A stretch of 24,000 bases of DNA from Acidimicrobiales bacterium. Lineage in GTDB: Bacteria > Actinomycetota > Acidimicrobiia > Acidimicrobiales > Poriferisodalaceae. The translations under genes were made by a program, and so were the position numbers. The notes beneath the pieces were generated by a model. It was not told where the DNA came from. It saw only the letters and a program-made list of their open reading frames with translations, and searched no databases. Where the stretch lies: positions 1,154,860-1,178,859 of the forward strand of contig OZ243889.1 of the NCBI GenBank assembly GCA_965213525.1. Direction: 5' to 3'. Shown here piece by piece: positions 5,020 to 20,491 of the stretch; position 1 is the stretch's first letter; each line of letters starts with the position of its first letter.

Positions 5020-5421
5020 TCAGGTGCGCCAGCTCGCCCGGGGATCGGCCTCGGGTCCCTCCGCGTCGCCGGTGCGCACGTACCACTCCCAACGGGTGCC
5101 GTCGGGGCCGTCGAGCCACGTCTCGGTCTTGGTGGCGAAGCAGCACACGGCGTCGGCGACGCCGGTGGTGTCGATGCCCACGCCCGAGAGGCGCTGCTCA
5201 GCGGCCACCACCTCCTCGGCGGTCTCGGTCTCGACGCCGAGGTGGTTCAGCGAGCCGCTCGGGCCTGCACCCTCGAACAGCACGAGCTTGAGGGGTGGTT
5301 CGGCGATCGCGAAGTTGGCGTACCCGTCGCGGATCTTGGCCGGTTCGGTGGCGAACAGCCGGGAGTAGAAGTCGACGGCTGCGTCGAGGTCATCGACGTT
5401 CAGGGCGAGCTGCAGGCGCAC
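5020..5421 (-). CDS. arsI: ArsI/CadI-family VOC (glyoxalase-fold) metalloenzyme, putative C-As lyase
   Basis: ORF track 5020..5493 (-). The start is taken at GTG 5421, with a GGAAGGA SD 5 nt upstream. The sequence VRLQLALNVDDLDAAVDFYSRLFATEPAKIRDGYANFAIAEPPLKLVLFEGAG..LNHLGVE....DAVCCFATKTETWLDGPDGTRWEWY matches the ArsI/CadI family, including the vicinal Cys-Cys pair and candidate Gln/His/Glu metal ligands. Confidence 0.85.
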   Translation of the reverse strand: MRLQLALNVDDLDAAVDFYSRLFATEPAKIRDGYANFAIAEPPLKLVLFEGAGPSGSLNHLGVETETAEEVVAAEQRLSGVGIDTTGVADAVCCFATKTETWLDGPDGTRWEWYVRTGDAEGPEADPRASWRT

Positions 5422-6043: not shown

Positions 6044-6529
6044 ATGACCTCGCCCGAACCGCCCCGCCCCGCCACCGATCCGACCCCGACCGGCTCGCCC
6101 GCCCCGACCGGAGCACCGGCCCCACAGCGACCCACCGTGCTGTTCCTCTGCGTCCACAACGCCGGCCGGTCCCAGATGGCCGCGGGGTGGCTCCGGCACC
6201 TGGCGGACGAAGCCATCGAGGTCCGCTCCGGTGGATCCGAACCTGCTGGTGAGCTCAACCCGGCGGCGGTGACGGCGATGGCCGAGGTCGGCGTGGACCT
6301 CACCGGCGAGGCGCCGCGGCGCTGGGACGACGCCGAGGTGCGAGCGGCCGACGTCGTGGTCACCATGGGCTGCGGGGACAGCTGCCCGATCGTGCCCGGC
6401 GTGCGCTACGAGGACTGGAACCTCACCGACCCCGCCGAGCAGCCGGTCGAGGTGGTCCGGGAGGTCCGTGACGAGATCCGCCGGCGGGTCGAGGTCCTGG
6501 CGCTCAGCCTCGGGGTCGGCCCGGCGTGA
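6044..6529 (+). CDS. arsC: Arsenate reductase, low-molecular-weight phosphatase type
   Basis: ORF track 5834..6529 (+), trimmed to ATG 6044, with a GAAGGAA SD at 6031-6037. P-loop CVHNAGRS (CX5R-S): TVLFLCVHNAGRSQMAAGW. Downstream Cys pair in VVTMGCGDSCP, followed by EDWNLTDP. About 30 aa of Pro/Thr-rich sequence form an N-terminal extension. Confidence 0.9.
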   Translation: MTSPEPPRPATDPTPTGSPAPTGAPAPQRPTVLFLCVHNAGRSQMAAGWLRHLADEAIEVRSGGSEPAGELNPAAVTAMAEVGVDLTGEAPRRWDDAEVRAADVVVTMGCGDSCPIVPGVRYEDWNLTDPAEQPVEVVREVRDEIRRRVEVLALSLGVGPA

Positions 6530-7296
6530 GGGCCGGCGCCCGGGTGGACGGGTCGTGGCGCCCCGACCTCCGGCGCCTGACCGCCGAGCTCGTCGGCACG
6601 GCGTTCCTGCTCGCTGCGGTGGTGGGCTCGGGCATCATGGCCGAGCAGCTCACCGACGACGTCGGCCTGCAGCTGCTCCAGAACGCCTTGGCCACCGCCG
6701 GGGTGCTGACCGCGCTGATCCTGGCGCTCGGCCCGGCCTCGGGCGCCCACTTCAACCCGGTGGTCACCCTGGCCGACCGCATCTTCGGGGGCATGGACAC
6801 CCCCACCGCGGCGTCCTACGTCGTCGCCCAGGTCGCCGGCGGGGTGCTCGGCGTGCTCGTCGCCAACGCGATGTTCGACCTGTCGGTCATCGACTGGTCC
6901 ACCACGACGCGCTCTGGTGCTCACCTGGTGCTGGCCGAGGGGGTGGCCACGATCGGGCTGCTGTTGGTGATCTTCGGGGTCGTGCGATCGGGCCGGCCGA
7001 TGCTGGCCGCGTTCTCGGTGGGCGGCTACATCGCCGGCGCCTACTACTTCACGTCCTCGACGAGCTTCGCCAACCCGGCGGTCACCGTCGCCCGCACGTT
7101 CTCGGACACCTTCGCCGGCATCGAGCCCTCTTCGGCCCCGGCCTTCGTCGCCGCCCAGCTGGGCGCCACGATCCTCGCCGTGGCCCTGATCCGGGTGATC
7201 TACCCCGACATCTCCGACGTCGCCGACCAGGTCATCGTCCCCCATGGCGACACCGCCGCCCACGAAGAGGTCGAGGTCGAGGCCGAGCCGCCGTAA
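6526..7296 (+). CDS. MIP-family aquaglyceroporin (probable arsenite channel, AqpS/GlpF-like)
   Basis: ORF track 6526..7296 (+), 256 aa. It has two half-helix boxes, SGAHFNPVVT (NPV) and SFANPAVT (NPA), and six hydrophobic segments. The GTG start overlaps the arsC stop (GTGA at 6526-6529). Confidence 0.9.
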   Translation: MRAGARVDGSWRPDLRRLTAELVGTAFLLAAVVGSGIMAEQLTDDVGLQLLQNALATAGVLTALILALGPASGAHFNPVVTLADRIFGGMDTPTAASYVVAQVAGGVLGVLVANAMFDLSVIDWSTTTRSGAHLVLAEGVATIGLLLVIFGVVRSGRPMLAAFSVGGYIAGAYYFTSSTSFANPAVTVARTFSDTFAGIEPSSAPAFVAAQLGATILAVALIRVIYPDISDVADQVIVPHGDTAAHEEVEVEAEPP

Positions 7297-7504: not shown

Positions 7505-8293
7505 ATGACCACCGCCACCGCCACCAGGAACGACGCCGTCGCGTCGGGCGTCACGCCGGATCGGCTGGGTGATCTGCGCCGTTGGAACCTCGGGCTCACC
7601 GCGTTGCACGCCGTGCAGGCCGTCGTCGTCGTCGTCCTGGCGAGCGACTTCGCCGTCACCCTCACCTCGACGTATCCGGACGGTCCGCCCGGGACGAGGA
7701 CCCCCCAGCCAGCCGAGCTCTTCGACGTGCGCATCGGAGCGGCGATCGCGGTGTTCCTCGGGCTCGCCGCCCTCGACCACCTCCTCACCGCCACCGTCGC
7801 CCGCCAGACCTACGAATCCGACCTCCGGGACGGCATCAACCGGTTCCGCTGGGTCGAGTACTCCTTCAGTGCCACGCTGATGGTGCTGCTCATCGCCTCC
7901 TACGCCGGCATCACCGACATCACCGGGGTCGTCGCCATCGCCGGGGCGAACGTGGCGATGATCCTGTTCGGCTGGCTGCAGGAGCGGATGAACCCGCCGG
8001 GGCGGGCGACGACGACGATGACGCCGTTCTGGTTCGGCGTCCTGGTCGGCCTCGCCCCGTGGGTGGCGATCGCCGTCAACCTCTTCGGCGCCGACACCGT
8101 GCCCAACTTCGTCTACGGGATCTTCTTCGCCCAGCTCGTGTTCTTCTTCAGCTTCGGGCTGAACCAGTGGCTGCAGTACCGCGGGGTCTGGCGGTGGTCG
8201 GACTACGCCTTTGGCGAGAAGGCGTACCTGGTGCTGAGCCTGGGCGCCAAGTCGGTGCTGGCCTGGCAGATCTTCGGCGGATCGCTGAACTGA
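7505..8293 (+). CDS. Heliorhodopsin (retinal-binding seven-TM photoreceptor, inverted topology family)
   Basis: ORF track 7505..8293 (+), 262 aa, with a GGAGGGA SD at 7490-7496. There is block-by-block similarity to heliorhodopsin 48C12 as I remember it. Blocks: LHAVQAVVVVVLASDFAVTLTSTYPDGPPGT; AVFLGLAALDH; NRFRWVEYSFSATLMVLLIA (counterion Glu in RWVEYS); NVAMILFGWLQE; TPFWFGVLVGLAPW; NFVYGIFFAQLVFFFSFGLNQWLQYRG; EKAYLVLSLGAKSVLAWQIFGGSL (Schiff-base Lys in SLGAKS). Confidence 0.9.
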   Translation: MTTATATRNDAVASGVTPDRLGDLRRWNLGLTALHAVQAVVVVVLASDFAVTLTSTYPDGPPGTRTPQPAELFDVRIGAAIAVFLGLAALDHLLTATVARQTYESDLRDGINRFRWVEYSFSATLMVLLIASYAGITDITGVVAIAGANVAMILFGWLQERMNPPGRATTTMTPFWFGVLVGLAPWVAIAVNLFGADTVPNFVYGIFFAQLVFFFSFGLNQWLQYRGVWRWSDYAFGEKAYLVLSLGAKSVLAWQIFGGSLN

Positions 8294-8330: not shown

Positions 8331-9383
8331 GTGGCGACACGGGTGATCCAGTGGGGCAGCGGCAACGTGGGCCGCAAGGCCATCGCCGCGGTGGCGGCGC
8401 GACCTGACCTCGAGCTGGTGGGCCTGATGGTGACCGATCCCGCCAAGGTCGGGCGCGACGCCGGTGAGCTGGCCGGCATCGACACGCTCGGGGTGGCCGC
8501 CACCGACAGCCTCGACGAGCTCGTGGCCCTCGACGCCGACGTGGTGCTGCACATGCCGCTGCCGTCGCTGGTGCACGGCGACGACCCCGGCGCCGACCTC
8601 GACGTGTTCTGCCGCCTGCTCGCCGGCGGCGCCCACGTCGTGACCACGGTCGGGTACATGTACCCGTCGGTGCACGGCGACGAGGTGATGGGCCGCCTCA
8701 CCGAGGCCTGCCAGACCGGCGGGACGGCGTTCCACGGAACCGGAGCCAACCCGGGCTGGTTCGGCGACGTGGTGCCGCTGGTCATGTCGGGGCTGTCGCT
8801 GTGCATCGACCGCATCTCGGTCACCGAGATCAGCAGCTTCCAGCACTACCCGTCGCCCGAGATCATGTTCGACATGATGAACTTCGGGCGCACGCCGGCC
8901 GAGTTCGACGCCGTCTCGGCCCGTCACCGGGGCTGGCTCGACGGCTTGTTCACCGAAGCGGTCCAGATGGTCGCCGACGGCCTCGGCCTCGACGTCGACG
9001 GCGTGTCCTCAGGGCTCGAGACGTGGGTCACCGACACCGATCTTGACACCGCAGCCGGCCGAGTCGGTGCCGGGACGGTGGCGGGCCAGCGGTGGAACTG
9101 GCAGGCGACCATCGACGGCGAGCCCGTGGTCACCCAGGAGACGGTGTGGCGGATGCACGACGACGCGGCCCCGGAGTGGCCCCGTGGCGACTGGTCGATC
9201 GTGATCGACGGTGAGCCCCGCATGCGCCTGTCCCTGCCCCACGGCTGGAACCGCGACGTGTTGGCCTCCACGGCCGCCCACGCCGTGAACGTCATCGGTT
9301 ACCTGGTCGACCGACCGCCCGGCGTCGCCACCTTCTTGGACCTGCCCGTCGTCGCCGGCCGGGGTGCCCACCTCCGCCGCTGA
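8331..9383 (+). CDS. DapB-like NAD(P)-binding oxidoreductase (dihydrodipicolinate reductase N-terminal fold / amine dehydrogenase-like)
   Basis: ORF track 8331..9383 (+), 350 aa, GTG start. The N-terminal Rossmann signature RVIQWGSGNVGRKAIAAV is typical of the family usually annotated as dihydrodipicolinate reductase-like. The gene starts 37 nt after heliorhodopsin on the same strand. The exact start is uncertain; GTG 8343 is also possible. Confidence 0.7.
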   Translation: MATRVIQWGSGNVGRKAIAAVAARPDLELVGLMVTDPAKVGRDAGELAGIDTLGVAATDSLDELVALDADVVLHMPLPSLVHGDDPGADLDVFCRLLAGGAHVVTTVGYMYPSVHGDEVMGRLTEACQTGGTAFHGTGANPGWFGDVVPLVMSGLSLCIDRISVTEISSFQHYPSPEIMFDMMNFGRTPAEFDAVSARHRGWLDGLFTEAVQMVADGLGLDVDGVSSGLETWVTDTDLDTAAGRVGAGTVAGQRWNWQATIDGEPVVTQETVWRMHDDAAPEWPRGDWSIVIDGEPRMRLSLPHGWNRDVLASTAAHAVNVIGYLVDRPPGVATFLDLPVVAGRGAHLRR

Positions 9384-9437: not shown

Positions 9438-12191
<2,754 letters not shown>

Positions 12192-12270
12192 CTCGGCCTC
12201 CCCCGTCGCGTCCACGTAGGCGGGCTCATCCTCCCATGCCCGGGCTCCACCTGGCCCGCCCCCCGGCTCC

Positions 12271-13184: not shown

Positions 13185-13305
13185 CTGACGACCGGACCGC
13201 CTGGCCGCCTGAACCGCCTGACGACCGGACCGCCTGGCCGCCTGGCCGCCTGAACCGCCTGACGACCGGACCGCCTGACCGCCTGACCGGCTGACCGCTT
13301 GCCGG
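13185..13305. repeat. Intergenic tandem repeat array built from 9-nt CTGRMCGCC units with a 33-41-nt super-unit
   Basis: CTGACGACCGGACCGC recurs at 13185, 13218 and 13259. Each copy is followed by runs of CTGGCCGCC / CTGAACGCC / CTGACCGCC / CTGACCGGC. The array lies in the 282-nt divergent gap between the PGPGW gene (start 13148) and the P450 gene (start 13431). Confidence 0.85.
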
Positions 13306-13430
13306 CCGGTGATCCATGCGAGCGGGCCGTCACCCATGTGGCCGTCGCCGTCCGATGCGTGGTGTCATCGGGTCGCGGGGCGCCGCTCAGGATGGGGCCT
13401 CGCGCGCCGAGCGACGAGGACGACCACACC

Positions 13431-14854
13431 ATGACCACCGTGACCAGACCGACGATCGACCTCGTCGATCCGGCCAGCTTCGCCGGCAGCCAGCCCCACG
13501 CCGCCTTCGATTGGCTGCGTGAGCACGAGCCCGTGCACCGCCACGGCGAACCCGACGGTCCCGGGTTCTGGGCGGTGACCCGCCACGACCTGGTCACGGT
13601 GGTGGGCAAGGACGCCGGACGGTTCTCCTCTGAGCCGACGATCATGTTGGCCGACCCCGACGAGGCCACCGATCTCGGTGAGCACCAGATGATGTTGATG
13701 TCTGACCCGCCCTTGCACACCCGGATGCGGCGCCTCGTCAGCCGCCGCTTCACCCCCAAGGCCGTGCGGGCCCTGGACGGATCGATCGCCCAGCTGGCGA
13801 CCCGCATCGTCGACGGCGTGATCGAGCGGGGCGGATGCGACCTCGTCACCGACCTGGCCGGTGAGATGCCGAGCTTCGTCATCGCCGACCTGCTCGGCAT
13901 CCCCCTGGAGGACGGACGAGCGCTGTACCACCACACCGAGGCGCTGCACTCCTCACCAGAGGTCGTCGGCATCGAGGCCCAACGCGCGGCGTTCGGCCAG
14001 ATGATGGCCTACAGCCAGCAGGTAAGCGGGGCGGATGCGACCTCGTCACCGACCTGGCCGGTGAGATGCCGAGCTTCGTCATCGCCGACCTGCTCGGCAT
14101 CCCCCTGGAGGACGGACGAGCGCTGTACCACCACACCGAGGCGCTGCACTCCTCACCAGAGGTCGTCGGCATCGAGGCCCAACGCGCGGCGTTCGGCCAG
14201 ATGATGGCCTACAGCCAGCAGGTCTACGCCGAACGGACCGCTGACCCGGGCGATGATCTCGCCTCGCTCATCGCCACCGGCCGGGTCGACGAGCGCCCGG
14301 TCGACGAGATCGACTTCTTCTTGTGGTTCCTGCTGCTCGTCGACGCCGGTGGTGACACCACTCGCAACCTCGTGGGCGGCGGCATGCACGCCCTGTTCGA
14401 GCGACCCGACCAGCTGCGGTGGCTCGCCGAGGATCCGCGAGGACGTCTGCCCCGGGCGGTGGAGGAGCTGCTCCGCTTCGTCAGCCCGGTCATCCACATG
14501 CGCCGGACCGCCACCGCGGACACCGAGCTCGGCGGGCAGCACATCGAGGCCGGCGACAAGGTCGTCATGTTCTACGGGGCGGCCAACCGCGATCCGGCGG
14601 TCTTCGATGACCCCCACCTCCTCGACCTCGGGCGTGACCCCAACCCCCACGTGGCCTTCGGTGGTGGTGGTCCGCACTTCTGCCTCGGGGCCCACCTCGC
14701 CCGCACCGAGATCATCGCCTTGATGGGTGAGATCCTCACCCGCCTCGACGATCTCGAGCCCGCCGGCGAACCGGGGTGGATGGCGTCGAACTTCATCTAC
14801 GGGCCGACCACCCTGCCGGTGCGCTTCACCCCGGCGACTCGCACCGTCGCCTGA
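13431..14854 (+). pseudogene. Cytochrome P450 interrupted by a frameshifting 200-bp tandem duplication
   Basis: The gene is split across two track ORFs. ORF 13299..14204 has its real start at ATG 13431, with GAGGA at 13415-13419 (MTTVTRPTIDLVDPASF...). ORF 14066..14854 is the second piece. The N-half reads correctly to ...MMAYSQQV, then leaves the frame. The C-half carries the I-helix VDAGGDTTRN, EELLRF (ExxR) and the heme loop FGGGGPHFCLGAHLAR. The span is 1424 nt, not a multiple of 3. Removing 200 nt gives 1224 nt, a typical 407-aa P450. Confidence 0.85.
13825..14223. repeat. Perfect 199-bp direct tandem duplication (13825-14023 and 14025-14223) separated by a single A (14024)
   Basis: A base-by-base comparison of the two copies (AGCGGGGCGGATGCGACCTCGTCACC...ATGATGGCCTACAGCCAGCAGGT) shows no mismatch. 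Both copies encode GGCDLVTDLAGEMPSFVIADLLGIPLEDGRALYHHTEALHSSPEVVGIEAQRAAFGQMMAYSQQV, in different frames. Confidence 0.95.
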
Positions 14855-15026: not shown

Positions 15027-17783
15027 GTGGCTACTCAGAGTACACGACGAACGCGACTGTCGGTCGCGCTCGTCGCTGCGATCATCGTGCTCACCGCCCT
15101 CCCGGTGGCCGCGTCGGCCGACCCGGCCGCCTCGGGTCCGGTCCTGCCCGGCGCCACACCATGGGCGTTTCGATCCTCATCGATCGAGGGCGCCGGCTTC
15201 GTCAACGTCATCGCCCACGACCCCCACCACCCCGGGACCCTGCTCGCCGGCGGCGACGTGTCGGGCCTGCACCGCTCGACCGACGGCGGCCAGACGTGGG
15301 CCGCATCCAACCGTGGCATCACCCGCATCCCCGAGCTGTCGGTGGCGGCGATCGCCTACTCCCCGACCGTCCCAGATCTCATCTACGCCGCCGTGGGCGG
15401 AAAGAACGCCGCCGGCGGGGCGCTGCTCGTCTCAGAGGACGGGGGCGCCAGCTGGTCGTCGCGCTCACGAGAGGTCACCTTCTCGGGTGCGAACAACTTC
15501 GGGCACGACGTCCTGCCCGCTCCCCACCCCCGCTCCACGGGGCAGCTGCTCGTCGTCGCCGACGACGGCACCCTCTACGCAGGCACGTTCGACGACGGGG
15601 TGCACCGCTCGACCGACGGCGGGCGGAGCTGGAAGCACCTCGGGCTGCGGGGCCGGTTCATCCGCGGCATGGCTGCTGACCGCGACCGCCTCTACGTCGC
15701 GGCGTGGGATGGCGTCCACGTCATCACCGACGCCGACGGCGCGGCCCGGGCGTCGCACCTGACCGACTCACCCGCACGGGTCGAGGAGATCGCCGTCGAC
15801 GGCGCCACGGTCGTGGCCGTGGCCGGCAAGGCGGGCATCTGGCGTTCGACCGACCGGGGTGGCACCTGGAGCCGCCAGCACAGCGACGGGGGCCTCTGGA
15901 TGTCGGTGACCACCGGCGTCGACGCCGGTCGGACCGTCTGGTACGCCGGCTCTGACGATCCGCCCCGCCAGGGCAGTCGTCGTGACAGCGTCATCCGCTC
16001 ACGCGACGGGGGCCGGACGTGGTCGCCGGTCACCGGGCCGGGCAGCGTCTCGACCGACGTCGGCGGCCCCGGAGGTGACCCATGGTGGTTCGCCAAGGAC
16101 AACGGCTGGGCGATGATCGGCCAGGGGGGCTTCACCGCCGCCCAGATCACCGTGAGCCCCCACGACGGTCGCCACATCGGTGTGTCCGGACGCTCAGGGA
16201 TCTGGGGCACCCGCGACGGCGCTGTCACCTGGCACCCGTGGGTGCGTGGGCTGGGCGTCACGGTGAACCAGGACGTGACCGCCGTGCGAGGGCCCCAGGA
16301 CCAGTGGGCGGTCGCCAACACCGACTGGGTGACCTTCGCCAGCGGTGACGACCTCAACAGCCACGCCGACCAGCGCCCGCCCAAGGGCAACACGGCCTTC
16401 TCGATCGTGCCCGACAGCCCGTCCAACGAGGGCGGCATCGTCGTCGCCGTCGGCGACCGGGACCACAACAAGAACGGCGAGATCTACAGCAACCGGGACC
16501 ACCTGCGCGGCGGACGGTGGGTCTCGGAGGGCTTCTTGAACGCCACCGGCGGTCGGCGACCCTTCGGTGCCGTGGTCGGCGAGGACACCCAGGGCCGCCG
16601 GGTGCTGGTCGTGGCCAGTGACGGCGACGGTGTGTGGCGCCGGGTCGGCAACGGGCCGTGGCGGCGTTCTGGGGGCACCGCCATGCGCAACACCCCGGCG
16701 AACCGCACCGCTCCCCTGGCATGGGCCGAGGGCACCGACACCGTCTACCTCTATGACGCCGCCCAGGGTCTGTACCGCTCGAACGACGCGGGCGCATCGT
16801 TCTCGTTGATCTCGGCGACGACGTCGAACCGGTGGTTGTCGGGGTTCATGGCCCTTGACCCCACCGACCCGGGCCGGGTCTACATCAGCCGCCTCAACCG
16901 CGAGGTCTGGCGCCTCGACGGGGCTGACGGGCCCGCCACGCACGTGCGCGCCACCCGCCTCGACGGGGTGTCGAGCCCCGGCCCGCTGGTCGTGGCCCCC
17001 GACGGCACGGTGATCGTGACGGGCAACGCCCTCGCTGACGACGTGGCGCTGTGGGTGTCCGGCGATCACGGCGACCGCTGGGTCGACGTCGCCGACGACG
17101 CCTACCGGGCGGCGGCCGGCTTCCCCTGGCAGATCGCCATGGCCGAGGACGGGACCCTCGTGCTCGCCCTGTTCGGCAACGGCGCCATCGTCGGTGACGT
17201 GCTCGACGGCATCGGCGCCGTCTCGATCGGGACCAAGGTGCCGACGACGACGGCGGCGCCCGATGTCACCGAACCCCCTGTCACGGTGGCGCCGACCACG
17301 GCGGCGCCCACGACGGCGGCGCCCACGACGGCGGCGCCCACGACGGTGGCGCCGACCACGGCGGCGCCCACGACGGCGGCGCCCACGACGGCGGCGCCCA
17401 CGACGGCGGCGCCGACCACGGTGGCCCCCCCGGCCGGCGAGGTCGACCAGACCCCGACGGTGAGGTGGAGCCGCCCCGCCACCGGCAGCACCGGGCTGGC
17501 GGGCAAGGTGACCCTGACGGGCATCAGCAACGACGATCGCGCCGTCGCCGAGGTGCAGGTGTCGGTCAAGGACCGCGGCACCGGCCAGTGGCTGCGTGCC
17601 GACGGGTCGTGGGGTCGCTTCGAGTGGGTCGACGCCCGTGCGGCCCGTCCCGGCAGTCACCGCACCACCTGGTCACTGCCGATCCAGGTGCCGGCGGGAT
17701 CGCGGTTCTTCGCCCAGGTGCGAGCCGTCGATGACGCCGGTCAGATCTCCGAGGTTCGTCCCTCGGTGGCCTGGAGCAGCTGA
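15027..17783 (+). CDS. Secreted BNR/Asp-box repeat protein (sialidase/GH74-like beta-propeller fold) with a Pro/Thr linker and a C-terminal Ig-like domain
   Basis: ORF track 15027..17783 (+), 918 aa, GTG start with AGGAG at 15016-15020. Signal peptide RRTRLSVALVAAIIVLTALPVAASA. There are at least 7 Asp-box (SxDxGxTW-like) motifs: STDGGQTW, SEDGGASW, STDGGRSW, STDRGGTW, SRDGGRTW, TRDGAVTW, SGDHGDRW. The (APTTA)n linker runs over roughly aa 750-800, followed by a C-terminal beta-rich domain of about 110 aa. Confidence 0.8.
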   Translation: MATQSTRRTRLSVALVAAIIVLTALPVAASADPAASGPVLPGATPWAFRSSSIEGAGFVNVIAHDPHHPGTLLAGGDVSGLHRSTDGGQTWAASNRGITRIPELSVAAIAYSPTVPDLIYAAVGGKNAAGGALLVSEDGGASWSSRSREVTFSGANNFGHDVLPAPHPRSTGQLLVVADDGTLYAGTFDDGVHRSTDGGRSWKHLGLRGRFIRGMAADRDRLYVAAWDGVHVITDADGAARASHLTDSPARVEEIAVDGATVVAVAGKAGIWRSTDRGGTWSRQHSDGGLWMSVTTGVDAGRTVWYAGSDDPPRQGSRRDSVIRSRDGGRTWSPVTGPGSVSTDVGGPGGDPWWFAKDNGWAMIGQGGFTAAQITVSPHDGRHIGVSGRSGIWGTRDGAVTWHPWVRGLGVTVNQDVTAVRGPQDQWAVANTDWVTFASGDDLNSHADQRPPKGNTAFSIVPDSPSNEGGIVVAVGDRDHNKNGEIYSNRDHLRGGRWVSEGFLNATGGRRPFGAVVGEDTQGRRVLVVASDGDGVWRRVGNGPWRRSGGTAMRNTPANRTAPLAWAEGTDTVYLYDAAQGLYRSNDAGASFSLISATTSNRWLSGFMALDPTDPGRVYISRLNREVWRLDGADGPATHVRATRLDGVSSPGPLVVAPDGTVIVTGNALADDVALWVSGDHGDRWVDVADDAYRAAAGFPWQIAMAEDGTLVLALFGNGAIVGDVLDGIGAVSIGTKVPTTTAAPDVTEPPVTVAPTTAAPTTAAPTTAAPTTVAPTTAAPTTAAPTTAAPTTAAPTTVAPPAGEVDQTPTVRWSRPATGSTGLAGKVTLTGISNDDRAVAEVQVSVKDRGTGQWLRADGSWGRFEWVDARAARPGSHRTTWSLPIQVPAGSRFFAQVRAVDDAGQISEVRPSVAWSS
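17283..17425. repeat. 15-nt in-frame tandem repeat (APTTA/APTTV) with a 60-nt higher-order unit
   Basis: Units are GCGCCCACGACGGCG / GCGCCGACCACGGCG. Block 17281-17340 and block 17341-17400 are 58/60 identical, so a four-unit block has itself been duplicated. Confidence 0.9.
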
Positions 17784-17923: not shown

Positions 17924-20491
17924 TCACCAGCTGCTGCCGCCCCCGAAGCCGCCGCCGAACCCGCCGCCGCCGAACCCGCCGAAGCCGCCGCCGAACCCGC
18001 CGCCCCAGCCCGATCCGCCCCAGCCGGACGAGCCGCCCGCGCCGCCGGCGAAGGTCCCCCCGCCAAAGCCCCCGAACCAGTCGGGTTGATCGGACCAGGA
18101 CGGGTCGGAGTACACAGGCTCCCAGCCGTAGGCCTGCTGGTCGCCACCGGTCAGCATCCAGTGGAAGAAGAAGAAGGTGAACGGGTCGAACGTGCCGAGC
18201 CCGGCGGCGATGGGTCGACCGGTCCAGGTGTCGTTGCGATCGCTCGTCCCGTCGTGGGCCAGCTCGGCAGCGAAGCGGTCGGCGTCATCGATCGACGAGC
18301 GGGCCAGGGACTGGCGCTGGGCGGCGTAGGCGAGGGCGAACTCCCGGGGACCCCGGGGATCAGACGCCCCGAAGGCCGCCGCCACGTCGGCGTAGGCGCC
18401 GACGAGCCCGAGCGCTCCGAGGGCGGACCGGGCCTCGGCCCAACGGCGCATCGCCTGGGCCGGCTCCATCGACACGGCCAGCACGCCTGCGATCGTGCGG
18501 GCGACCCCGGGGTCGACGTCGTGGCCGATGAGCTGGTCGTGCAGCTCGCCGAGGACGACGAAGCCGCCCTCACGTCGGCGCAGCAGCGCCACCGCGATCG
18601 ACAGCGGGATGCCCTCGGCCTCGGCCGCCTGCCGCACCCGGGCGATCTCGCCGGGGTCGGTCAGACCGGCGACGGCCTGCTCGGCGCTCTCCCCGGGCGA
18701 GAAGCCCTGACGGCGGTTGTGCTCGTAGACGTCGAGGAACTCGTCGACGTCGTCCTCGTCCCGGTTGAGGATCAACAGTGCGGCCAGCGCGGCCGGGTCG
18801 AGCCCGTCGCGCTGCAGCTCGGCGGACCGCTCGAGACGGATCCGCACCTGCTCGTAGATCTCGACCGATGCACCGGCGTCGAGGTCGACGTCGGCGAGGG
18901 CGGCGGCGACCGCTGGACGGGCGGTGCTCTCGGGCAGCCGTTCGTAGAGGTCACCGAGGCGGCGGGTCTTGTGCTCGGCGAGGTCATAGGACCGCTCGAG
19001 GTGAGCGACCTCCTCGGCGAGCGGGTCGTCGCCGTCCAACACGGGCCCCGCCCGGTGGAAGCGCTCGCCGAGATCGGTCACCAGCACCTCACCGACAGGG
19101 GTGGGCACGAGGTGATCCTCGATGATGCGCCCTGCTCGGCGTCGAGCCTCGGCCACCCGGTGGGGACGGACCGCCGAGACCAGCTCGTCGAGCTCACGAA
19201 GGCGCACGTCGAAGGTGGCGTCGTCATCGAGATCGACCGCCAGGGCCTCAGCGGCCAGCGCCTGGGTCCCGTCGTCGAGGACGTCGCGCTCGCCGGTGGC
19301 GGCGAGCTCGAGCGGCACCTCGGTGCCAGCGCGCAGGCGATCGGCGTCGATGAGCTGCACCAGACCGGCGGCGGCCAGCGACGGCACGATCTCGGGCCCC
19401 TGGACGAGGCGCCGGTCCAACAGCTCATCGAGCGCCGACAGCGCGACCGAGGTGGGCACTGCTGGGCCGCCCTCACCGTCGACGGCCACGGCGTACTCGG
19501 CGGGGCGGGGGATCTCGGCGCCGGTGACCTCGAGCCGGTCGAGCTGCGCGTCGACCAGGGCGGCGCGGCGGCGGTGCTCGGCGTCGTGGCGTTGGCGTCG
19601 GCGGGCGTTGCGGTTCGAGAGCGCCAACGCACCAGCGCCACCGGCGGCGACGAGGCCGAGGACGACGAGCGGCGCCGCCGAGGACCCACCGTCGTCGGTG
19701 CTGGCAGGCGGAGCGGGGTCGGCGACGCCGCCGGCGCCCGGATCGCCGCCCGGATCGGCCGGAGCGAGCTGCTGGCTGATGGCGGCGGCGATGGCGATGA
19801 TGCCGCCGTCGAAGTCACCAGCTCCGAAGAAGTTGTCGCCCGCCGAGGCCAGTCGGTCCCCGTCCGACAGCGTGTCTGCGAGCCCGGGGCCCCACACGAC
19901 GGCCGAACGTCGGCCACCCACATCGACGACGACGACGATGCCGTCGTCGCGGTCGGCGTCACCGACCCCCCAGGCGTCCCCGAGCCGTTCGGCGAAGTCC
20001 TCGGCGCCACCGGGGGCGTCGGACACGGTGACCACCGCCATCTGGCGGCCGTGGGTGGACACCTCACGGGCGACCGCCGCCTCCACCCGGGCTTGGTCGG
20101 CCAACACCCCGGCGCCGTCGGTGACGAAGCCCTCGCAGGTGTCCAGGCTCTCGAACGGGGGGCACGAACCGGCACCCGGCGTCGGGACGGTGTCACCGAC
20201 CCCCGGTCCGTCGACAGCGGACGTGGTGGCGTCGCCGCCAGGGGCCGAGACCGCCGGGGCCTCATCATCGACCACGGCTCCGAGCGGCACAGCCAGCCCC
20301 AACGCGGCCCCACCGGCGGGCACAGCCGGCCCCAACGCGGCCCCACCGGCGGGCACAGCCGGCCCCAACGCGGCCCCACCGGCGGGCGAGGCGGTCGATC
20401 CGAGCACCACGACGGCCGACACGACGGCGAGCACCGGCATCGACAGCCGCCGGCGGGGGGCCATCTGAGAACACCCAGCCGGTCGGTCCAT
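17924..20491 (-). CDS. TPM-domain (TLP18.3/Psb32/MOLO-1 family) membrane protein with a large uncharacterised cytoplasmic domain and a Gly/Phe-rich tail
   Basis: ORF track 17924..20491 (-), 855 aa; ATG 20464 is an alternative start. Signal/anchor MPVLAVVSAVVVLGS. Three copies of PAGGAALGPAV. TPM block FVTDGAGVLADQARVEAAV....GRQMAVVTVSD..GGAEDFAERLGDAWGVGDADRDDGIVVVVDVGGRRSAVVWGPGL...FFGAGDFDGGI. TM helix AAPLVVLGLVAAGGAGALAL followed by RNARRRQRH. About 480 aa follow with no motif I recognise, then FFFFHWMLTGG and the tail GGFGGGFGGFGGGGFGGGFGGGSSW. Confidence 0.75.
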   Translation of the reverse strand: MDRPAGCSQMAPRRRLSMPVLAVVSAVVVLGSTASPAGGAALGPAVPAGGAALGPAVPAGGAALGLAVPLGAVVDDEAPAVSAPGGDATTSAVDGPGVGDTVPTPGAGSCPPFESLDTCEGFVTDGAGVLADQARVEAAVAREVSTHGRQMAVVTVSDAPGGAEDFAERLGDAWGVGDADRDDGIVVVVDVGGRRSAVVWGPGLADTLSDGDRLASAGDNFFGAGDFDGGIIAIAAAISQQLAPADPGGDPGAGGVADPAPPASTDDGGSSAAPLVVLGLVAAGGAGALALSNRNARRRQRHDAEHRRRAALVDAQLDRLEVTGAEIPRPAEYAVAVDGEGGPAVPTSVALSALDELLDRRLVQGPEIVPSLAAAGLVQLIDADRLRAGTEVPLELAATGERDVLDDGTQALAAEALAVDLDDDATFDVRLRELDELVSAVRPHRVAEARRRAGRIIEDHLVPTPVGEVLVTDLGERFHRAGPVLDGDDPLAEEVAHLERSYDLAEHKTRRLGDLYERLPESTARPAVAAALADVDLDAGASVEIYEQVRIRLERSAELQRDGLDPAALAALLILNRDEDDVDEFLDVYEHNRRQGFSPGESAEQAVAGLTDPGEIARVRQAAEAEGIPLSIAVALLRRREGGFVVLGELHDQLIGHDVDPGVARTIAGVLAVSMEPAQAMRRWAEARSALGALGLVGAYADVAAAFGASDPRGPREFALAYAAQRQSLARSSIDDADRFAAELAHDGTSDRNDTWTGRPIAAGLGTFDPFTFFFFHWMLTGGDQQAYGWEPVYSDPSWSDQPDWFGGFGGGTFAGGAGGSSGWGGSGWGGGFGGGFGGFGGGGFGGGFGGGSSW
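20288..20386. repeat. 3 x 33-nt in-frame tandem repeat (PAGGAALGPAV)
   Basis: Units lie at 20288-20320, 20321-20353 and 20354-20386 (CACAGCCGGCCCCAACGCGGCCCCACCGGCGGG). Unit 1 differs by one base. Confidence 0.95.

Follow-up and report, generated by a model that had tools for sequence, protein, structure and literature searches.

Gene content of the window

The DNA considered here (the window, meaning the whole stretch analysed, 24,000 nt in length) has a GC content of 72% and belongs to one contig of 3,310,513 bp in the NCBI/ENA record. A single contig of that size from an uncultured lineage points to a long-read or finished assembly. Intact genes of the window, as judged by GC3 frame plots and Pfam coverage, include those for an adenine deaminase, an amidohydrolase, a glyoxalase-family protein, and an LMW phosphatase. 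A heliorhodopsin gene (7505-8293, plus strand; PF18761, E=3.7e-98) is preceded by the gene for a MIP-family channel (6526-7296, plus strand) and followed by a DAP-dehydrogenase/DapB-like gene (8331-9383, plus strand), the three lying on the same strand with short gaps between them. Two genes upstream of the cytochrome P450 gene that is our main subject, the minus strand encodes a 925-aa flavin monooxygenase-esterase fusion (9438-12215) that combines an FMO/BVMO-like part, with a Pyr_redox_3 domain at about residues 74-280, and a C-terminal alpha/beta hydrolase (Abhydrolase_3, E=2e-75). Such a combination of domains suggests that the protein may couple Baeyer-Villiger oxidation to ester hydrolysis. 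An intact gene for a PGPGW membrane protein, also on the minus strand, separates the fusion from the P450. Downstream of the P450 lie genes for a 918-aa BNR/sortilin-like protein, a TPM-domain protein, an amidase, a Rieske/VanA oxygenase, and an ABC ATPase, all of them intact. No redox-partner or sterol-catabolism genes were found next to the P450 within the 24-kb window, and neither Ku nor LigD is encoded within it.

Short-unit tandem arrays occur at several places. One lies at 13195-13309, where an 8-nt unit (GACCGCCT and variants) is present in about 13 copies embedded in a 41-nt higher-order repeat. It lies about 120 nt upstream of the ATG at 13431, in the region from which the minus-strand PGPGW gene and the P450 diverge, and is probably intergenic, the coding signal there being ambiguous. 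Other arrays lie in frame inside genes (12026-12168, minus strand; 17283-17429, plus strand; 20286-20387, minus strand; 17936-18004, minus strand). At the protein level, the 925-aa fusion carries (ADESG)n at its N-terminus, the 918-aa BNR/sortilin-like protein has an (APTTA)n linker, and the TPM-domain protein combines (AGGAALGPAVP)x3 near the N-terminus with a C-terminal tail rich in Gly and Phe. Low-complexity linkers built from repeats seem to be tolerated in this lineage.

Of all the genes in the 24 kb, the P450 alone is interrupted. A second broken gene was considered at 5020-5197 on the minus strand and rejected, as this is a separate glyoxalase-family gene overlapping a long version of the amidohydrolase ORF. 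Because all other genes are intact, the consensus is not generally error-prone, and what is seen at the P450 is one discrete structural lesion. Apart from that lesion, which is a tandem duplication, the P450 gene shows no decay.

An interrupted cytochrome P450 gene

The P450 gene spans 13431-14854 on the plus strand and measures 1424 nt as deposited, or 1224 nt (407 aa) without one period of the duplication. The deposited sequence holds no uninterrupted P450 ORF. The frame is lost at 14024, the seam of the duplication, because the period of 200 nt is 2 mod 3. A preliminary description of this DNA had placed the break directly after ...AYSQQV, and both the ORFs and a GC3 frame plot, in which the coding phase shifts solely at ~14024, confirm that position.

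Two fragments result, both called as separate genes in the public record. The N-terminal ORF (13431-14204, plus strand; P0121 in the public record) encodes 257 aa, of which 198 are genuine P450 residues and the remaining 59 are out-of-frame residues read through the second copy, in close agreement with the roughly 60 aa of junk C-terminus described earlier. Searched alone, this fragment has no Pfam match. The C-terminal ORF (14066-14854, plus strand) is 262 aa at its longest, starting from an internal methionine (Met146); it carries the I-helix, the ExxR motif, and the heme-binding cysteine, and is without the N-terminal third of the P450 fold. The preliminary description gave the fragment this start, which holds for the ORF, but the public call (P0147) begins at the ATG at 14201 and is 217 aa long. 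In the string ATGA at 14201-14204, this in-frame ATG (14201-14203) shares two bases with the TGA stop (14202-14204) of the N-terminal fragment, an overlap that we take to be coincidental. Deleting either 200-nt period in silico yields the seamless P450 that had been proposed, a 1224-nt ORF of 407 aa that reads ...AYSQQV|YAERTADPG... across the restored junction.

Anatomy of the duplication and its junction

Copy 1 of the repeat (13825-14023, plus strand) and copy 2 (14025-14223, plus strand) are identical at 199 of 199 bases by direct reading, repeat search, and string comparison. Tandem Repeats Finder returned a single array at 13825-14223 with period 200, 2.0 copies, 100% matches, and a score of 798. 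The copies are arranged head-to-tail. Copy 1 encodes residues 132-198 (ERGGCDL to AYSQQV), which correspond roughly to helices D to the start of G of the P450 fold, and copy 2 is in frame with the rest of the gene downstream. Between them sits one base, an A at 14024 (plus strand), which sets the period to 200 nt and fits neither flank, the base before copy 1 being G (13824) and that after copy 2 being C (14224). Two identical copies joined by an extra A had been reported at the outset, and four approaches now agree on this structure. It can be read either as 199 duplicated nucleotides with a 1-nt filler or as a 200-nt duplication mismatched at the seam. The probability of a 199-nt identity arising by chance is ~4^-199, and a chance origin is not an option. 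A repeat search found no third copy of the unit in the 24-kb window.

The duplicated form reads CAGCAGGTAAGCGGGG across the seam, with GGT-A-AGC at the junction itself, while the single-copy form reads CAGGT|CTACG. Microhomology at the two breakpoints amounts to 0 nt on either side and the filler is the single A, so the joint shows the absent or minimal microhomology and the non-templated nucleotide of an NHEJ-type joint. Microhomology was therefore rejected as the cause of the duplication. Inverted repeats were likewise rejected, as those detected (I6-I9) sit within the repeat unit and not at its ends. A predicted DNA hairpin encloses the right breakpoint in its native context (14184-14263, plus strand; -24.4 kcal/mol, z = -3.7), where stability exceeds that of 199 of 200 shuffled sequences; the left-breakpoint context gave z = 0 against shuffles and no hairpin signal. 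The bearing of the right-breakpoint hairpin on the duplication is uncertain, and it is compatible with natural and artefactual scenarios alike. The string CAG|GTAAGC at the junction resembles a eukaryotic 5' splice site, a likeness taken as coincidence in a bacterial gene of 72% GC.

The restored P450, its orthologs, and the public record

The restored 407-aa protein matches Pfam PF00067 (E=1.3e-19) and is colinear with characterised P450s, but only once one 200-nt period is removed. Its closest PDB entries are CYP125MRCA (8vxi, E=6e-118), CYP268A2, CYP124, CYP125, and CYP142, and its residues 3-403 align with residues 4-415 of 8vxi. In an alignment of 12 sequences, comprising the restored protein and 11 orthologs, the heme-thiolate motif FxxGxxxCxG is present as FGGGGPHFCLG with Cys351 in invariant columns, and the I-helix motif DAGGDTT (238-244) and the K-helix motif EELLR (278-282, with ExxR at 279-282) are invariant across all 12. 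The restored ORF thus retains all invariant positions of its orthologs. By sequence, the restored P450 is placed in the CYP125/124/142 clade, alongside CYP268. It shares with this clade of steroid and methyl-branched lipid omega-hydroxylases a full-length alignment and the I-helix, ExxR, and Cys-ligand motifs; unlike the genes of clade members, however, the gene here is interrupted as deposited, and the likeness is one of sequence alone.

Orthologs of 395-426 aa number in the hundreds in Acidimicrobiales MAGs, the best of them 79% identical. No gap occurs at the restored junction when the 11 orthologs are aligned, the consensus there reading AYSQQVYADR. DNA alignments of orthologous loci to the window fall into two blocks, and on the ortholog side these blocks share ~190-200 nt; the duplication is thus a property of the present sequence only. 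All 160 related loci align as a single copy, none (0/160) with a tandem duplication in the orthologous gene, and no ortholog in the 11-sequence alignment or in the DNA alignments to related loci carries either the repeat or the gene split. A single copy is therefore the ancestral architecture of this P450 gene. The comparison with orthologous P450s proposed in the preliminary description has accordingly confirmed a single-copy architecture, and the possibility raised there that orthologs carry the same internal repeat in frame was looked for and not found. An in-frame domain duplication, a split P450, and programmed frameshifting are rejected on the combined evidence of the Pfam result and the gapless ortholog alignment.

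Related loci share only the P450 with the window, with the exception of one (L091) that also shares a few upstream genes. A scan of 2.14 Mb of related MAG loci turned up a single near-perfect tandem duplication of comparable length, and no gene contained one. The single case, at 17084-17406 of a Polyangiaceae MAG contig (L052), is a 163-nt x2 tandem duplication with copies 98% identical, apparently in non-coding DNA.

In a large protein collection, the N-terminal fragment and four neighbouring proteins each form a singleton cluster derived from the same contig. The presence of the fragments in a public collection means that the duplication is in the record and was not created by cutting the window. 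Among 5.8 billion clusters, no other protein at least 90% identical was found beyond the two fragments, and a 190-aa query spanning the junction matched the two fragments of this contig and nothing else above 76% identity. No second copy of the gene was found in GTDB representative genomes or JGI metagenome contigs, where orthologs reach at most 79% identity. Among the collections searched, this population is sampled once.

Origin of the duplication

We infer that the seam has a software origin, and consider an untrimmed overlap or false duplication from assembly or post-processing to be the probable explanation, though with only modest assurance. The organism would then have an ordinary, intact, single-copy gene for the 407-aa P450, and the second 200 nt would be absent from its DNA. 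Two pieces sharing ~200 nt at their ends would have been set end to end with the overlap left untrimmed; these could have been reads, graph edges, contig ends (e.g., of a circular chromosome later rotated), or polishing chunks. Such a join would leave two identical copies and, if the end base of one piece was wrong, one badly supported base at the seam, the A at 14024, after which gene callers would cut the P450 into two fragments. This reading is favoured because one software join covers the identity of the copies, the misfit seam base without microhomology, and the period of 200 together. A period of exactly 200 resembles an untrimmed overlap with an end-base error, and biologically such a round number would be a coincidence. 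Slippage and template-switch duplications normally use short direct repeats, so the lack of microhomology at the breakpoints sets this case apart from the usual products of those routes and also favours an artefact. The same holds for the undecayed state of a gene that is the sole broken one in 24 kb, and for the rarity of long perfect tandem duplications in related MAG DNA, where the 2.14 Mb scanned yielded only the non-coding 163-nt example. Identical copies, an anomalous seam, and a parameter-like size are found together here, a combination that is suggestive, not diagnostic.

There is precedent for errors of this kind. Long-read metagenome assemblers (metaFlye, metaMDBG, hifiasm-meta, HiCanu) have been found to produce direct duplications without any supporting read (10.1101/2025.04.22.649783), and polishing workflows cut drafts into overlapping segments, with an overlap of 1000 nt in one example (PMC6962354). 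A contig of several megabases from an uncultured lineage is in keeping with a pipeline of this type. The present case shares with assembly false duplications and untrimmed overlaps the identical adjacent direct copies, the misfit seam base, the parameter-like size, the setting in a single multi-megabase contig, and the spurious split ORFs. It differs in that published false duplications mostly involve longer repeats and were detected through read clipping, whereas this one is known from the assembled sequence alone. One polishing tool is said to have a default overlap of 200 nt; the literature consulted bore out overlapping-segment polishing as such and did not connect the 200-nt figure with a specific tool. 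Several points weaken the artefact reading. Polishing with reads usually eliminates 200-nt insertions for which there is no read support, and the clean surrounding consensus suggests careful polishing. A 1-nt filler without microhomology is also what Ku/LigD end joining, a widespread process in Actinobacteria, is known to leave. The window contains other tandem arrays as well, although those are short-unit and in frame.

A genuine, very recent tandem duplication that inactivated the P450 and left a young pseudogene is a serious possibility, if the less probable one. By an end-joining route, sister chromosomes broken at 13824|13825 and 14023|14024, or an end from a stalled fork, would have been joined in the absence of homology and with addition of a non-templated A. 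Zero microhomology and a 1-nt filler are what Ku/LigD NHEJ would be expected to leave, given that LigD-POL adds both templated and non-templated nucleotides and that Ku/LigD end joining occurs widely among Actinobacteria (PMC8068969). The locus thus has in common with a spontaneous intragenic duplication of the Ku/LigD type an out-of-frame copy in an otherwise intact ORF and a joint, free of microhomology and with its single filler base, that is compatible with LigD polymerase activity. The right-breakpoint hairpin offers a plausible site of stalling or breakage. The quality of the surrounding consensus also speaks for a real event, as polishing might have removed a 200-nt insertion lacking support, and loss of the P450 would be tolerable in an accessory gene that has many paralogs and orthologs in the clade. 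The lesion would on this account be neutral or mildly advantageous, and not yet collapsed or further damaged. Against it, a tandem duplication by end joining depends on two breaks on sister copies, an uncommon route, and leaves the exact 200-nt size unaccounted for except as coincidence. RecA can collapse perfect direct repeats of 199 nt, and without selection the allele should be short-lived; this instability, together with the lack of further decay, means that any genuine event must be recent. Nor did the protein clusters searched contain a second independent sample of the population with the junction, or the 160 related loci a duplication in the same gene.

Two functional readings of a real duplication were also weighed. 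In one, the P450 would be reversibly phase-variable, off when duplicated and on after precise RecA-dependent excision, in the manner of cap3A; we consider this unlikely. It draws on the facts that a perfect intragenic duplication here shifts the frame of the ORF and that its precise loss restores it in silico, and on a pneumococcal precedent. In cap3A of the Streptococcus pneumoniae type 3 capsule, as Waite et al. (2001) are reported in PMC11163986, the gene goes OFF through a spontaneous tandem duplication within it and comes back ON by precise reversion. The formal structure, a direct tandem duplication within an ORF whose precise reversion restores the frame, is shared with the present locus. 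In pneumococcus, however, many independent duplications arose in one gene and switching was seen phenotypically in culture, whereas here there is one event in one sample. Duplicated lengths in the cap3A study of Waite and colleagues are said to lie between tens and a few hundred bp. For a switch one would expect repeated, independent duplications of the gene, but the related loci show none, the gene neighbourhood shows no selective rationale, and reversibility alone is insufficient since any tandem duplication is reversible in principle. The fuller proposition, in which a lipid/steroid-type P450 of a free-living, uncultured Acidimicrobiales bacterium is governed by a RecA-reversible switch and a real duplication is one of its states, is a little more doubtful again. 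In the other functional reading, the duplicated arrangement itself would work, either as a split P450 made of two polypeptides or through ribosomal frameshifting that gives a protein with an internal 66-residue repeat. The ATGA overlap of stop and start at 14201-14204 does recall a layout for translational coupling. But the N-terminal fragment ends in 59 out-of-frame residues and matches nothing in Pfam, the C-terminal fragment is missing a third of the fold, orthologs are neither split nor repeat-bearing, no slippery site or conservation was seen, and the zero divergence between copies gives no sign of selection on the arrangement. This reading is very improbable indeed.

The preliminary description had listed three origins, namely a very recent event, a RecA-reversible on/off duplication, and an assembly or sequencing artefact. 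The list was sound, but the junction details tilt the choice toward the artefact and, failing that, toward end joining, while the on/off option gained no support, with none of the 160 relatives carrying a duplication in the P450 gene.

Implications

Under both leading readings the feature is of a known kind, either an assembly seam or a duplication-inactivated gene. Its main value is one of caution: the deposited record yields two spurious P450 'proteins', one with 59 out-of-frame residues, and both (P0121, P0147) are already in public protein collections. Wider biological interest would arise only if the switch were true, as this would be duplication-based phase variation of a catabolic gene outside a host-pathogen setting, and the switch is unlikely. 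An artefact would call for correction of the sequence and for a search of this contig for other seams. A real duplication would make the P450 a textbook young pseudogene and add a small datum on end-joining-type duplication in Acidimicrobiales.
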